Source of the DNA: Tepidiformaceae bacterium
GTDB taxonomy: Bacteria; Chloroflexota; Dehalococcoidia; Tepidiformales; Tepidiformaceae
Direction: 5' to 3'
Assembly (NCBI GenBank): GCA_041488155.1
Contig: JBGPOS010000007.1
Location: forward strand, 11,107-75,106
Length of the DNA: 64,000 nt
Each line of letters starts with the position of its first letter. The stretch's first letter is position 1. A model generated the notes under the pieces. That model was not told where the DNA came from, did not search any database, and worked only from the letters and a program-made list of their open reading frames with translations. Shown piece after piece: positions 12,923 to 61,152 of this stretch. The position numbers and the translations under genes were made by a program.

Positions 12923-12999
12923 GGGCGATTAGCTCAGTTGGTTAGAGCACTTCGCTTACACCGAAGGGGTCGGGGGTTCGAGCCCCTCATCGCCCACCA
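12923..12999 (+). tRNA. tRNA-Val (anticodon UAC), CCA encoded
   Basis: Hand-folded cloverleaf. Acceptor GGGCGAT/ATCGCCC, D arm GCTC..GAGC, anticodon arm CTTCG-CTTACAC-CGAAG, T arm with TTCGAGC loop, discriminator A then CCA. Confidence 0.92.
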
Positions 13000-18442: not shown

Positions 18443-18528
18443 TGGCGGAGAGGGAGGGATTCGAACCCCCGGAGCTTTCGCTCACACGTTTTCAGGACGC
18501 GCGCCTTAAGCCACTCGGCCACCTCTCC
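18443..18528 (-). tRNA. tRNA-Ser (class II, long variable arm; anticodon read as UGA), CCA encoded
   Basis: Acceptor GGAGAGG/CCTCTCC, discriminator G, variable arm GAGC-GAAA-GCTC, T loop TTCGAAT. The anticodon arm CGCGT-CCTGAAA-ACGTG places UGA at 34-36 but C at position 33. Confidence 0.8.
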
Positions 18529-52801: not shown

Positions 52802-52876
52802 GCGGGAGTAGCTCAGCGGTAGAGCGCCTGCCTTCCAAGCAGGATGTCGCGAGTTCGAACCTCGTCTCCCGCTCCA
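52802..52876 (+). tRNA. tRNA-Gly (anticodon UCC), CCA encoded
   Basis: Acceptor GCGGGAG/CTCCCGC, D arm GCTC-AGCGGTA-GAGC, anticodon arm CCTGC-CTTCCAA-GCAGG, T arm GCGAG-TTCGAAC-CTCGT. Confidence 0.95.
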
Positions 52877-57272: not shown

Positions 57273-57770
57273 ATGGCGACGATTGTGAGAGCCGCGACGC
57301 AGGCCGACGTGCGGCGTCTCAACGAAATCTACAACCACTACATCGTGCATACGCCGATCACGTTCGACATCGAGCCGTTCTCGCTGGATCAGCGGTTGGA
57401 TTGGTTTTCGCACTACCAGGAGACGGGACCCCATCGTGTGCTCGTGGCGGAGGCCGACGGCCAGGTGCTCGGCTCGGCCTGGAGCAGCCAGTTTCGGACG
57501 AAGCGGGCGTACGAGACCACCGTGGAAACGAGTGTCTATTGTGCGCCGGAGGCGACAGGCCGTGGCCTGGGCAAGCTGCTCTACACTGCTCTGTTCGACG
57601 CACTCGGGCGGGAGGGGCTCCACCGCGCGGTCGCTGGCGTCACTCTCCCGAACGAGGCTTCTGTGCGGCTCCACCTGGGGTTCGGGTTCAGCCAGATCGG
57701 GCTCTTTTCGCAGGTGGGCCGCAAGTTCGGGAAGTTCTGGGACGTAGCCTGGTTCGAGAAGCCGCTCTGA
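57273..57770 (+). CDS. GNAT acetyltransferase, phosphinothricin-acetyltransferase-like
   Basis: IVRAATQADVRRLNEIYNHYIVHTPITFD...TSVYCAPEATGRGLGKLLY...GRKFGKFWDVAWFEKPL. ATG 57273 lies 12 nt after GGAGG. Confidence 0.85.
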   Translation: MATIVRAATQADVRRLNEIYNHYIVHTPITFDIEPFSLDQRLDWFSHYQETGPHRVLVAEADGQVLGSAWSSQFRTKRAYETTVETSVYCAPEATGRGLGKLLYTALFDALGREGLHRAVAGVTLPNEASVRLHLGFGFSQIGLFSQVGRKFGKFWDVAWFEKPL

Positions 57771-57824
57771 GCGGAAGTCGCTTTATCTGTGGCGCGCCTG
57801 CTTGACCGGCCGAAGAGGGGCGTC

Positions 57825-57892
57825 GTAGCCTCGAGCCAACCTCGTCGCGATAGACAGCGGTGGCTTTGGTCACCGCCGATGTCCGGCGAGGC
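57825..57892 (+). repeat. Structured repeat copy A (68 nt)
   Basis: Imperfect direct repeat of 57966-58033. Folds as outer helix CCUCGUCG/CGGCGAGG and inner hairpin GCGGUGGC-UUUG-GUCACCGC. Confidence 0.7.
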
Positions 57893-57965
57893 CCCTGAAT
57901 AGTTCGAGTCGGCCGAGCCGGGGAAGCCCGGCACTCCGCACCTTGACGGGCGGCTTGCGAGGGAC

Positions 57966-58033
57966 GTAGCCTGCGGGCAACCTCGTCGCGATAGACCCCG
58001 GTGGCTTCGGTCGCCGCCGATGTCCGGCGAGGC
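57966..58033 (+). repeat. Structured repeat copy B (68 nt)
   Basis: Same architecture as copy A, 141 nt downstream. Inner hairpin CGGUGGC-UUCG-GUCGCCG. A stem-position difference relative to A (A to G) keeps the pair (U-A becomes U-G). Confidence 0.7.
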
Positions 58034-58060
58034 TGTTCCAGGGCTCGAATGGATGCCGGG

Positions 58061-58116
58061 ACGCCCGGTGTCGGTCTTGTTGCTCCTCCGCGAGCAAAGA
58101 GACGGACACCGGGCGT
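58061..58116 (+). terminator. Long hairpin followed by a U-rich tract, directly upstream of the HEAT-gene RBS (terminator or attenuator-like)
   Basis: ACGCCCGGTGTC (58061-58072) pairs perfectly with GACACCGGGCGT (58105-58116). An inner helix TTGCTC/GAGCAA is present. TTTCAAGTTTCAGGAGG and ATG 58139 follow. Confidence 0.5.
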
Positions 58117-58138
58117 TTCAAGTTTCAGGAGGTTTAGG

Positions 58139-58693
58139 ATGCCCGCACCCACTCCGTACACCGAACTGGTCGAACGGCTAGGCCACGCCGACAAGGACGA
58201 GCGCTGGAAGGCGGTCGCTGACCTGCGGGCCCTCGGCGACGACGCAGTGCCCGCAGTCATGGAAGGTCTTTCGCATCCCGACTGGCGCGTGCGGCGAGGG
58301 TGCGCCATCTTCGCCGACCACCATCCCGATCCGGCCTTGCTCCAACGCCTCAAGCTGACGTTGCACGATCCGAAGGCGAAGGTGCGAATGTGGGCAGTCC
58401 ACTCTCTCTCGTGCGAACCATGTAAGCCCGGCGGGAACCCTGTCGACCCCGTCCCGGCGGTGATCAAGACGCTCCTTGAAGACAAGTCTCCTCGCGTGCG
58501 CCGGACAGCGGCCAGCATGCTCGCCTTCCAGCCAGCCGAACTGCGAGTGACGCGCGCCCTCCGCCGGGCGCTTCAGTCCGAGACCGACGAGCGGGTACGG
58601 GGCTTCATCCGTTGGGGAATCGGAAGGGCCACCGAGGCAGCGACGCATTCGCCGTCTTCTATCCGGGACCAGACGCAGCCCAGAGAAGGCTAG
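58139..58693 (+). CDS. HEAT-repeat (PBS-lyase-like) protein
   Basis: AGGAGG lies 7 nt upstream of the ATG. Repeated ...D.RWKAVADLRALGDDAVPAV...HPDWRVRRGCA...DPKAKVRMWAVHSL...DKSPRVRRTAASML units. Confidence 0.75.
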   Translation: MPAPTPYTELVERLGHADKDERWKAVADLRALGDDAVPAVMEGLSHPDWRVRRGCAIFADHHPDPALLQRLKLTLHDPKAKVRMWAVHSLSCEPCKPGGNPVDPVPAVIKTLLEDKSPRVRRTAASMLAFQPAELRVTRALRRALQSETDERVRGFIRWGIGRATEAATHSPSSIRDQTQPREG

Positions 58694-61152
58694 GTCAGGA
58701 CACCGGCCGCAGCGTATTCGGAGATCTCTTCATCGGCGAGGCCGAGCAGATCGTGCAGCACCTCGTGCGTGTGCTCTCCAAGGCAGGGCCCAGCCGTGAG
58801 CTTCGCGGGAGTGTCCGAGAAGAGGGTCACAGGGCCATCGTAGGGCGTCAGTCCCATGACCCCGTGCTGGCACGGCACGAAGAATCCGCGGTGCGCGAGC
58901 TGGGGATCGCGGTGGAGGTCCGAGGGCCGCTGGACCACCGCTGCGGGGACGCTGGCCGCTGCCAAGCGCTCGACGAGTTCAAAGGCGCCCTGGTCACGGC
59001 ACCAATCGGCGAGCGCGGTGTCTATCTCCGCGTCGTGTAACAGGCGTTCGGCAAGATTGGCGCGCTCCCAACCTTTGAACCGCACGCCTGGCGCCTCCGC
59101 GCAGAGGGCACGCCACTGTTCCAAGGATTCGGCGGCGATAGCGACGTATCGCTCCTTGCCTTCGGCTCCGTAGACGCCGTGGGGGCAGGCACGGTCGGAG
59201 GAGTGGCCGGCGGCCTCGTGCGTCCGGCCGTTCACGGTGTAATCGAGGACCAGCGGCTCGGCGAAATGAATGGCCGCTTCCACCTGGCCGAGATCGATGT
59301 GTTGACCCAGCCCGGTGCGGCTCCTTTCGAACAGGGCAGCGGTCAGCGCGGCCACTCCGTAGCGCGGGGCGATGAAGTCGGTGTAAGCGCCCCATGTGCC
59401 CCTGGACGGACGGTCCGGCCAGCCCGTGAGACCGTGGAGGCCCGACAGGGCGGCGCCCTGCGTCCCGAATCCGCGGTAGGTTGCGTACGGGCCGGTCTGG
59501 CCGCAGATGCAGGTGCTAAGCATCACGAGGTCGGGCCGATCGCGCGCGATCTCCTCGTAGCCAAAGCCGAACTGAGCGAGGACCCCGGGGGTGAAGCTCT
59601 CGAGGACGACGTCTGACCAGGCGATGAGCCTGCGGGCCAACTGCTGGCCCCCCGGCAGCGCCAGGTTGAGCGCCAGGCCGAGCTTCGAGCTATTGAAGTT
59701 CGCCTGGAATTGGGAACGATCGATCCCGGGCTCGCCGTCCTTGAAGGGCGGGCCGAGCCGCAGGACATCCGGACGGGTAGCGCTTTCGACGTGGACCACG
59801 GTGGCGCCGTGGTCCGCGAGGGCCTTCGAAATCAAGGGGCCCACGCCTACCCAGGCGAAGTCCGCGACCTTGAGTCCGTCGAAGGCGCGGGACCCCGGCT
59901 TGCGGCGGCGACTCGATCGGAGAGGCGAAAGTCGAACGGCCGTCAGCAAGTCCTGATCCGCGCCGAGTGCTGGGGCAGGGGCGCGCAGCTTCATTGGAGT
60001 TCGACTCAAGCGCGCGGCCACTCCCGGGTGGCAACGACCGCCGACGCTCTCCCAGTACTGTCTCGCCTGTAGTTGGGGGTCGCGGAGAAGCTCGTCGATG
60101 GATCGGATCGGCGCTATGAGGAGCTTGTGCTCGACGGCCCGGCGCATGATCTGTTCCTTGGTCAGGCTGAGGAAGTAGCGCGCAATTTCGTCACGGGCAG
60201 TGATGAGGAGTTCGGGGGCAACCTGGCCGGGGGTCATTGTCTCCACCCAACTGGCCCAGCCTGACTCCGCAAGCTCCGGCGCCAACCTCCCCTCCGCCTC
60301 TATCAGGTGCACGAGGTTGGCGAGCGTCCGGCCGCCGAGGCCAGCGATCGTGACCGACATCTGGACGTAACCGTCGGAGCAGGGCCAGAGGTTCGGGAGG
60401 GCCACGCCGGGGACGAGCTCGGTCGGAGGTTCGGCCCGGGCCTCGCCGGTCTTCGGCGGATCGCCCCCGGTGTTCGGGGGATAGCCGGTGGCGTTCATGA
60501 GCGTCCAGACCATCGCGGCCTGCATCGAGACGTCGAGATGTTGCCCCCGGCCGGAACGCTGGCGTTCGTTGAGCGCGATGATCGTGTCGGCGGCTGCCTG
60601 GATGCCAGCGTGAAACGCCGCCTGCGGGTGGCCCACCGGCACAGGCGGCCGGTCGGAGTCGCCCTGGAGGCCGAGCAAGCCGCCAGCCGCTTCGATCGTG
60701 AGATCGGTGGCCGGGCGAAGAGCGTGCGGGCCGTCCTGCCCGTAGGGAGTCACCGATACGTAGATCAGGCGGGGGTTCAGCTTCTTCAGTGCCGGAAAGC
60801 CGAGCTTCATGTTCCCCATCGTGCCGGGGTCGAATGACTCGATGAGCACGTCCGCCGAAACGGCAAGGCGACGCAATTCGGCGTGGCCGGCCTCGGTCTG
60901 CAGATCGACGACGACGCTTCTCTTGCCGAGGGCCACGGCCGCCCAATAGAGCGAGCCGTTGGGGTCGCCTTCGCGCCCTTTGGTGAACGGAGGGAGGAAG
61001 CGAGCCGCGGCGCCAGCGGTTGGCTCGACTTTGACTACATCTGCGCCAAGATCCGCGAGGAGACGGCCTGCAAGTTCCGCTCGCTCCGTTGCCAGGTCCA
61101 GAACACGGACTCCCGCCAGCGGACCCTCGCTTTCGCCGGGCAGGTCGGTCAT
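58690..61152 (-). CDS. Fusion of two family III (CaiB/BaiF) CoA-transferase modules (820 aa)
   Basis: LAGVRVLDLATERAELAGRLLADLGADVVKVEP near the N-terminus and LKVADFAWVGVGPLISKALADHGATVVHVES near residue 410. Each is followed by a full-length module. Confidence 0.88.
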   Translation of the reverse strand: MTDLPGESEGPLAGVRVLDLATERAELAGRLLADLGADVVKVEPTAGAAARFLPPFTKGREGDPNGSLYWAAVALGKRSVVVDLQTEAGHAELRRLAVSADVLIESFDPGTMGNMKLGFPALKKLNPRLIYVSVTPYGQDGPHALRPATDLTIEAAGGLLGLQGDSDRPPVPVGHPQAAFHAGIQAAADTIIALNERQRSGRGQHLDVSMQAAMVWTLMNATGYPPNTGGDPPKTGEARAEPPTELVPGVALPNLWPCSDGYVQMSVTIAGLGGRTLANLVHLIEAEGRLAPELAESGWASWVETMTPGQVAPELLITARDEIARYFLSLTKEQIMRRAVEHKLLIAPIRSIDELLRDPQLQARQYWESVGGRCHPGVAARLSRTPMKLRAPAPALGADQDLLTAVRLSPLRSSRRRKPGSRAFDGLKVADFAWVGVGPLISKALADHGATVVHVESATRPDVLRLGPPFKDGEPGIDRSQFQANFNSSKLGLALNLALPGGQQLARRLIAWSDVVLESFTPGVLAQFGFGYEEIARDRPDLVMLSTCICGQTGPYATYRGFGTQGAALSGLHGLTGWPDRPSRGTWGAYTDFIAPRYGVAALTAALFERSRTGLGQHIDLGQVEAAIHFAEPLVLDYTVNGRTHEAAGHSSDRACPHGVYGAEGKERYVAIAAESLEQWRALCAEAPGVRFKGWERANLAERLLHDAEIDTALADWCRDQGAFELVERLAAASVPAAVVQRPSDLHRDPQLAHRGFFVPCQHGVMGLTPYDGPVTLFSDTPAKLTAGPCLGEHTHEVLHDLLGLADEEISEYAAAGVLT

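Follow-up and report, generated by a model that had tools for sequence, protein, structure and literature searches.

A 64,000-nt window of the genome of a Tepidiformaceae bacterium (contig JBGPOS010000007.1, positions 11,107 to 75,106; GC content of 66%) was found to harbor a structured RNA element in the gap between the gene for a GNAT acetyltransferase and the gene for a small HEAT-repeat protein. The element is present there in two copies, each of them behind a promoter-like site of its own. It seems secure that the element is a genuine structured RNA, conserved and specific to one strand, which acts on the HEAT gene in cis. Our preferred reading goes further and is offered tentatively, namely that the element would serve as a riboswitch-like cis-regulatory sensor RNA at the 5' end of the HEAT mRNA. 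The RNA family is new, its kind, the structured 5' leader, is familiar, and the duplicated promoter-plus-sensor unit of the window is unusual. An initial annotation, made from the letters alone, had proposed a tandem cis-regulatory leader at this site; the proposal is supported, but what is duplicated is a predicted promoter together with a hairpin, and not two aptamers within a plain single leader.

The gene boundaries given in that annotation were confirmed, with the GNAT open reading frame (ORF) ending at 57770 and the HEAT ORF starting at 58139. The direct repeat in between is real as well, but its described length of 68 nt turned out to be too short. A repeat search revealed 92 gap-free nucleotides (57801-57892 vs. 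57942-58033, 80% identity, period of 141 nt), and in a gapped alignment of the two units the similarity reaches about 57931/58069, corresponding to about 135 nt. Each unit consists of a promoter-like site of the form TTGACN-18 nt-TAGCCT, followed after 8 nt by a 52-nt irregular hairpin. The similarity of the sequences in front of the two copies had been noticed before, but their identity as promoter-like sites had been missed. No credible ORF was detected between the copies, whose starts are 141 nt apart. The region comprises the following features:

57802-57831, + strand: predicted promoter A (TTGACC 57802-57807, 18-nt spacer, TAGCCT 57826-57831; from sequence)
57840-57891, + strand: hairpin copy A (covariance model R1, 68.3 bits, E 9e-14)
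57840-57847/57884-57891, 57848, and 57849-57852/57880-57883, + strand: helix P1, bulged C, and helix P2 of copy A (orthologue covariation)
57853-57854 with 57878-57879, and 57857-57864/57869-57876, + strand: G·A/A·G pairs and helix P3 with loop UUUG of copy A
57917-57932, + strand: small hairpin in the tail of unit A, GCCGGG-GAAG-CCCGGC (gapped unit alignment, whole-region fold)
57943-57972, + strand: predicted promoter B (TTGACG 57943-57948, 18-nt spacer, TAGCCT 57967-57972)
57981-58032, + strand: hairpin copy B (R1, 67.7 bits; 48 of 52 positions identical to copy A)
57981-57988/58025-58032, 57989, 57990-57993/58021-58024, and 57999-58005/58010-58016, + strand: P1, bulged C, P2, and P3 with loop UUCG of copy B
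58055-58069, + strand: small alternative hairpin, GCCGGG-ACG-CCCGGU (truncated-transcript folds, flagged by a terminator scan)
58058-58119, + strand: long, nearly perfect, terminator- or attenuator-like hairpin (inverted repeat 58061-58085/58092-58116; -48.1 kcal/mol, z -6.0)
58116-58126, + strand: interrupted U-rich tract UUUCAAGUUUC (from sequence)
58127-58132, + strand: Shine-Dalgarno sequence AGGAGG, 6 nt 5' of the ATG at 58139
58139-58693, + strand: gene for the HEAT-repeat protein, 184 aa (Pfam HEAT_2, E 2e-20)

The outer helix P1 is formed, as initially described, by CCUCGUCG (57840-57847 and 57981-57988) and CGGCGAGG (57884-57891 and 58025-58032), and the inner hairpins of both copies were also found as drawn before. 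The short helix between them had been given as GAC/GUC; here, the comparison of orthologues favors a 4-bp helix GAUA/UGUC adjoining P1. Of the 52 positions, four differ between the copies: the junction accounts for two and the loop for one, and the fourth is the previously noted A/G difference (57872/58013), which faces a U and retains pairing. Folded on the + strand and compared with shuffled sequences, copy A reached -33.3 kcal/mol (z -3.2) and copy B -34.6 kcal/mol (z -2.0); folds of the - strand were not better than shuffles (z -1.5 and -0.9, respectively). Downstream, the previously noted long hairpin was recovered, here with a span of 58058-58119, followed by UUUCAAGUUU, the AGGAGG, and the start codon.

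The protein collection contained 38 relatives of the HEAT protein besides itself. Upstream DNA was compared across loci and was taken from every relative with fetchable DNA, from a protein-guided metagenome scan, and from HEAT genes in loci fetched via homologues of the PhyH-family dioxygenase. Altogether, 15 distinct loci with readable upstream DNA were available (the window, L001-L004, L125-L127, L133, L134, L136-L138, L150, and L152; 46-67% protein identity), and in all 15 the element was located directly upstream of the HEAT gene, with compensatory changes among the leaders and at a distance of 15-190 nt 5' of the start codon. The neighboring genes were otherwise unrelated and encoded, e.g., ribosomal protein L1, MerB, ParE, peptidase S8, or PhyH. 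Distant HEAT homologues of at most 42% identity (L139, L142, L144-L148) did not carry the element. One of the HEAT relatives is named as a protein from a metagenome-assembled genome (MAG) of Tepidiformaceae (Chloroflexota); together with a Candidatus Binataceae MAG, the element spans at least two phyla.

Read from 5' to 3', the consensus starts with P1 and a bulged C, continues with P2 and a tandem G·A, and ends, beyond a small internal loop, with P3. In the group of the window, P1 comprises 8 bp (CCUCnUCG/CGGnGAGG), within an overall range of 8-12 bp; a second group displays a P1 that is longer by GCCG-A...CGGC and of another sequence (CCGCG.../...CGCGG). The bulged C after P1 is almost invariant. 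P2 is 4 bp long in all its versions (GAUA/UGUC, GACA/UGUC, GGCA/UGCC, GACG/CGUC, and GGUG/CGCC), and its third position may be U, C, G, or A facing an invariant G, so that there is no Watson-Crick constraint at this point. Stacked directly on P2, a 5'-GA stands opposite a GA-3', which according to our own reading of the alignment would form tandem sheared-type G·A/A·G pairs. The internal loop beyond has 2-3 x 1-2 nt, and P3 is free in sequence and length, with UUCG, GAAA, and CUAG among its loops. At L137:648-768, P3 carries an insertion of about 80 nt, which is itself predicted to be structured; the length of P3 is evidently unconstrained. The invariant positions that are unpaired or non-canonical, namely the CGCG around the bulge, the GA/GA, and the G of P2, would fit what is expected of a recognition site. 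A kink-turn, i.e., a three-nucleotide bulge with tandem sheared G·A following on the same strand and no bulge on the other, was considered and rejected by our reading of the alignment: the tandem GA/AG adjoins P2, but neither strand of the loop beyond it is free of extra nucleotides, and P2 separates the single bulged C from the GA/AG.

Pairing of these helices is well conserved across the leaders. With 14 sequences aligned by MAFFT alone, standard pairs occupied 92.4% of the pairing cells compared with 34-53% when the 3' partners were slid by 1-3 columns, both sides had changed in 11 of the 17 pairs, and the covariation score was reached by none of 500 shuffles. For the model-aligned set of 19 sequences, the values were 91.9% and 34-56%, respectively. 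At one P1 position, 13 of the 19 sequences revealed a U·G pair. Since this would be a C·A mismatch on the opposite strand, the functional strand is that of the gene. Covariance-model hits were also confined to the gene strand and, in the window, the promoter-like site ends 8 nt before P1, all of which points to the + strand reading of the initial annotation. In general terms, the element thus shares with riboswitches a conserved structured domain with covarying helices and conserved unpaired nucleotides, as well as a position in the sense-strand 5' leader relative to a predicted transcription start.

Comparison of the region with Rfam 15 (4227 models) resulted in no match at the gathering thresholds, in agreement with the earlier remark that the motif was not recognized as a known riboswitch class. 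At E ≤ 10, only noise on the long hairpin was obtained (microRNA, VA, and STnc400 models, 13-20 bits vs. thresholds of 60-100), and the leaders of 13 orthologous loci gave nothing at E ≤ 1. Literature searches for a motif tied to HEAT, PhyH, or arnT genes or to Chloroflexi, including riboswitch-discovery papers, revealed no mention of it. The unit is locus-specific, as had been suspected: blastn as well as two covariance models detected two copies only within the 64 kb of the window (68 bits for both, the next best hit having 13 bits), a plasmid search gave no match to it, and about 160 kb of related loci contained no element except beside HEAT or PhyH genes. Within the 64 kb and the plasmids it therefore does not behave like a dispersed repeat of the REP, BIME, or MITE type. 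A scatter of the unit over many unrelated intergenic sites, a lack of transcription on the + strand, and a lack of a conserved leader in front of orthologous HEAT genes had been named at the outset as outcomes contrary to the initial interpretation; none of the three occurred, with the strand judged from the model hits, the U·G pair, and the promoter-like site, which supports it.

Scores of such a short, G+C-rich model have to be read with some care. A pattern scan of genome contigs with TCGCGRYAGACN{13,27}YCGATGYCCGG yielded at least 119 loci, which were discarded as chance matches, mostly in coding sequence and none of them with a P1. Sites without P1 that were picked by this 20-nt pattern from unrelated genomes (L006-L124, e.g., L033:6199-6259) scored up to 41 bits with R1, so that hits below about 45 bits (L004:1752, L137, and L136:1655 with R1) rest on their context. 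Thresholds for this model have to lie above about 45 bits or be combined with context.

A promoter-like match of at least 8 of 12 positions to the -35 and -10 hexamers was found at the same distance from the hairpin in 14 of 18 leaders; among random 59-nt windows drawn from these loci, only 0.9% contained one. In each of the 18 leaders, the 8-bp core of P1 follows the end of the best site after 8-12 nt. For an extended P1, the gap to the full helix is, by our reading, 6-9 nt. Since it ends only a few nucleotides before P1, the hairpin should form the extreme 5' end of the mRNA. A stricter promoter scan made no call in the region.

Between the element and the gene, a second structured part follows. 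After a linker, 12 of the 15 HEAT leaders carry a long hairpin of about 20-25 nearly perfect pairs, which differs in sequence and is conserved in place, and behind it the layout UUU(U)-N3-4-UUU(U), then GGAGG, is recurrent. The tails are cleaner in the orthologues L125 and L137 (UUUUGGUUUU and UUUUUGCUUUUU). A small alternative hairpin uses the 5' arm of the long one, so that the two structures are mutually exclusive. It covaries between leaders (GCCGGG/CCCGGU, GCGGG/CCCGC, CGCGGAG/CUCCGCG) and, with transcripts cut off ahead of the 3' arm, forms in nine of the ten leaders folded (the window and eight of nine others); in L001, the 5' arm pairs weakly with an upstream segment. The 5' element itself remained folded in all ten truncated leaders. 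In these folding models, the choice between the small and the long hairpin looks like that of an antiterminator and a terminator. A three-state model, in which a segment upstream of the long hairpin pairs with a P1 strand, is not regarded as supported: the complementarity exists in single leaders, but the strand involved is the 3' one for the window and the 5' one for L003 and L152. Leader-peptide attenuation was discarded, as the short ORFs starting from the conserved UGGAUGCCG are wholly different between the window and L001.

The hairpin in the tail of unit A (57917-57932) is not followed by a U tract; its homologue in unit B is the small hairpin located in front of the long one. Copy A has no terminator of its own. 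With the second predicted promoter lying between the copies, only transcripts from promoter A would carry both in a shared 5' untranslated region (5' UTR). Since the duplication, the promoter hexamers have changed at none of 12 positions and the sensor hairpins at the four mentioned above, compared with 13 of 26 positions in the spacer and the segment from -10 to P1 (9 of 18 identical in the 18-nt spacer). Against this non-hexamer promoter DNA, the difference is significant for the hairpins (Fisher p = 5e-5) as well as for the hexamers (p = 0.003). The conservation of hairpins and hexamers next to diverged spacers argues, as far as the sequence can tell, that both promoters and both elements of the window are maintained by selection; gene conversion limited to exactly these segments could also have kept them alike.

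Doubling of the element was not restricted to the window. Upstream of the HEAT orthologue at L138 (337-401 and 402-470; the same as L141:1721-1854), two elements lie back-to-back behind a single TTGACT-N-TAAAAT promoter, and are tandem outright, i.e., homologous domains less than 300 nt apart, without an ORF between them and in one 5' UTR. At L136, a degenerate element with a weakened P1 (1655-1725) is followed by a U run (GAUUUCUUUUUCC). Next comes another promoter-like site, and then a strong copy (1794-1866), which probably makes L136 a second two-promoter case like the window. At L004:1752-1816, a diverged element (34.9 bits with R1) precedes the gene for a PhyH-family dioxygenase (L004:1952-2779). 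This copy comes with a predicted promoter, a long hairpin, a U tract, and a GGAGG of its own, and the HEAT gene with its own element follows directly. Its P3, GGCCGUGUAAACGGUC, is nearly identical and homologous to that of the first element at L138.

Multiplied sensor domains are a known habit of riboswitches (PMC9481103). As in tandem glycine riboswitches, in which two aptamers share one expression platform, and the pseudo-cooperative thiamine pyrophosphate (TPP) and c-di-GMP-I riboswitches (PMC9481103), the window displays two homologous domains before one ORF, with a terminator-like hairpin and a ribosome-binding site behind them, and the doubling arose more than once (window, L136, L138/L141). 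There is, however, no match in sequence or structure to the glycine, TPP, or c-di-GMP-I classes. While the back-to-back layout of L138/L141 resembles that of the glycine riboswitch, the layout of the window differs. A survey of tandem riboswitches treats the lack of an intervening promoter as a sign of a shared 5' UTR (PMC9481103). Unlike the known tandems, the window, and probably L136, duplicates the promoter too, which would give rise to mRNAs with one or two domains.

Based on these features, we tentatively propose that the 5' hairpin is the sensor of a riboswitch-like attenuator. It would bind an effector, most likely a small molecule or an ion, and its occupancy would bias the choice between the small hairpin and the long hairpin with its U-rich tract just before the ribosome-binding site. 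In leaders without a long hairpin, the sensor might act on translation initiation or mRNA stability instead. For the window, an ancestral single unit of promoter, sensor hairpin, linker, and small hairpin would have been tandemly duplicated with a period of 141 bp, and selection would have kept both promoters and both sensor hairpins since. The gene may thus be read from two promoters, resulting in mRNAs with two sensors or one; if so, the ratio of one-sensor to two-sensor mRNAs would be a further regulatory variable. A small-molecule or ion riboswitch is favored because of the invariant loop and bulge nucleotides, the spread over two phyla, the repeated multiplication, and the terminator-like platform.

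Several observations weigh against this reading. No consistent base-pairing link between the 5' element and the small and long hairpins was found among the leaders compared. The HEAT leaders of L127, L133, and L002 have no long hairpin; in L127 and L133, the element lies 15-30 nt from the start codon with no terminator in between (14 nt from its end to the ATG in L133). The window has an interrupted U tract, and a terminator scan (loop of 3-8, at least 5 T in 8) passed over the long hairpin. In the PhyH leaders of L149 and L150, the long-hairpin part is kept without the sensor hairpin, so that the two parts can work apart. With -33 kcal/mol and a P1 of 8-12 G+C-rich pairs, the hairpin alone is very stable and should therefore fold whether or not a ligand is present, whereas the P1 of most riboswitch aptamers is marginal. 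The HEAT protein is basic, which would suit a protein effector. Finally, all instances were found by searching beside HEAT or PhyH genes; the gene association is therefore ascertained and not unbiased.

In the PhyH leaders themselves (L150:3830-4000 and L149:3800-4000), a conserved AAUAUCUGAGCC box and a covarying hairpin were present in addition to the small and the long hairpin, the U-rich tract, and GGAGG.

A serious alternative, although we hold it to be less likely, is autoregulation, with the hairpin being bound by the encoded HEAT protein or by another dedicated RNA-binding protein that represses or activates its own mRNA, and with the doubling raising sensitivity. The strict tie of the element to one small protein gene among neighbors that all differ would be explained well, and so would the extra copy at L004, which adjoins the HEAT gene, and the lack of a detectable base-pairing link to the expression platform; the tie to the gene is, however, in part an artifact of the way in which loci were searched for. 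The RNA is a rod that is rigid and pre-folded, and its bulged C, purine-purine pair, and tandem G·A make up an architecture typical of protein recognition. The isoelectric point (pI) of the HEAT protein is 9.4 in the window and 9-11 in 25 of 31 orthologues (P0001-P0031), so most of these proteins are basic. On the other hand, searches by sequence and structure (Pfam, NCBIfam, PDB sequence search, Foldseek) led only to generic HEAT/alphaRep (designed), MTH187, YibA, and CpcE/F-type lyase matches, and we know of no bacterial HEAT/alphaRep-type protein that binds RNA, which counts against this alternative. The AlphaFold model of the protein is an all-helical HEAT/alphaRep-type solenoid with a predicted local distance difference test score (pLDDT) of 94. 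Invariant or near-invariant His, Asp, and Cys residues cluster in the neighboring inter-repeat loops DHHPD and HSLxCEPCKPGGNP (residues c. 58-64 and 88-101), which hints at a site for a metal or cofactor and not at an RNA surface.

The leaders of ribosomal proteins L10, L20, and S15, which are bound by their own encoded proteins, provide the model for such a mechanism: a stable structured 5' element in the mRNA of one small basic protein, kept together with its gene. The present case differs in that the HEAT/alphaRep solenoid has no known RNA-binding activity, no ribosomal or other cellular RNA is known to be mimicked, and the element is doubled in several lineages. Should the HEAT protein nevertheless prove to be the effector, it would be the first bacterial HEAT/alphaRep-type protein to act as a specific RNA-binding regulator.

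As a 5'-terminal stabilizer, the hairpin would shield the mRNA from 5'-end-dependent RNases and the long hairpin would be a processing site of the RNase III type, with no dedicated effector involved. In line with this, P1 of every leader starts a few nucleotides from where transcription is predicted to begin, both hairpins are highly stable, the long one has about 20-25 nearly perfect pairs, and the two leader parts also occur separately. Mere protection, however, has no need of invariant internal-loop nucleotides, a bulged C, and fixed helix lengths across two phyla, and leaves the repeated doubling unexplained, so that we hold it to be improbable. Quite improbable, and for other reasons, are independent small RNA (sRNA) genes, with an RNA ending at the small hairpin (copy A) or at the long hairpin and U tract (copy B) and acting in trans or together with the HEAT protein, whose gene would be reached only by read-through. 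Each unit does have its own promoter-like site, between copy B and the gene there is a strong hairpin that carries a U-rich tail, and a U run follows the upstream unit of L136. The hairpins of L127 and L133, however, lie close to the start codon without a terminator in between, the stretch from the long hairpin to the AGGAGG shows no further promoter that could serve the HEAT gene, and the element always has the same orientation directly 5' of the gene. We give hardly any weight to a DNA-level operator for a transcription factor, despite the overlap of the element with the region just 3' of the promoter-like sites and the divergent gene for a HTH protein in Binataceae-type clusters, or to a REP- or MITE-like repeat: the helices change sequence and keep complementarity, with P3 ranging from 5 bp to the 80-nt insertion, whereas operators conserve sequence and not pairing, the conserved U·G pairs function only in + strand RNA, and the copy numbers reported above do not fit a dispersed repeat.

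With respect to the favored sensor reading, the element may be compared with the small riboswitch classes NAD+-I (nadA; two tandem domains), THF-II (folE), Li+ (nhaA-I), and xanthine (NMT1). Like it, these are rods of about 50-65 nt with conserved nucleotides in one internal loop and a bulge, a variable distal hairpin, and occasional tandem arrangement. None of their Rfam models matched at E ≤ 10, however, P1 is longer and more stable here, and the associated genes, those for the HEAT-repeat protein and an Arn-like cluster, resemble those of none of these classes.

This conserved cluster was identified via PhyH homologues at L152:1361-8816, L150:1606-8831, and L149:1958-8852, i.e., on soil metagenome contigs and a contig whose PhyH protein is named by NCBI as belonging to a Candidatus Binataceae MAG. 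It includes a divergent gene for an ArnT-like transferase of the PMT family, TPR and HTH genes, the HEAT and PhyH genes in either order, and genes for a GT2 protein, a formyltransferase, and an NAD-dependent epimerase/dehydratase. A further cluster protein of 380-409 aa resembles the catalytic domains of GH50 beta-agarases (E 1e-16 to PDB 4bq4). In these clusters, too, the element precedes the HEAT gene (56 and 50 bits). Since the HEAT gene heads the row of genes in L152, the element may control the entire cluster there. The regulated transcription unit of these loci contains or adjoins ArnC-, ArnA-, and ArnT-like genes. The arn operons for L-Ara4N modification of lipid A are regulated by PmrAB/PhoPQ; the mgtA and M-box leaders are Mg2+-sensing. 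By analogy, an envelope-stress or metal signal is conceivable for the Binataceae-type loci, although the control element here is an RNA hairpin unrelated to the M-box and mgtA leader. The HEAT gene of the window is a solitary one; it converges with a CoA-transferase gene and has no arn-like neighbors.

Taken to its most specific form, the proposal would be a new riboswitch class of Chloroflexota and Binatota, with a repeatedly multiplied aptamer of about 52 nt that senses an ion or an envelope-related metabolite and controls the His/Cys-bearing HEAT protein and the Arn-like operon of Binatota. Judged from sequence features, this form is more doubtful than the general one. In any case, the element would add a covariation-supported family of structured RNA from poorly studied phyla (Chloroflexota/Tepidiformia and Binatota), and it gives a handle on an uncharacterized, widespread small HEAT protein, which in some of the genomes is tied to envelope modification of an Arn-like kind. 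The identity of the effector, be it a small molecule, an ion, or the HEAT protein, would reveal the signal controlling the function of this protein. The duplicated promoter-plus-sensor unit provides a clean natural example of how a tandem regulatory RNA originates and is retained.

Downstream, the HEAT ORF (+ strand, ending at 58693) overlaps by 4 bp at the stop codons with a convergent ORF of 820 aa (- strand, 58690-61152), two stretches of which matched CoA-transferase family III; between the two genes, no terminator-like spacer was detected. Elsewhere in the window, the sole Rfam matches were three tRNA genes, located at 12923-12996, 18446-18528 (- strand), and 52802-52873.

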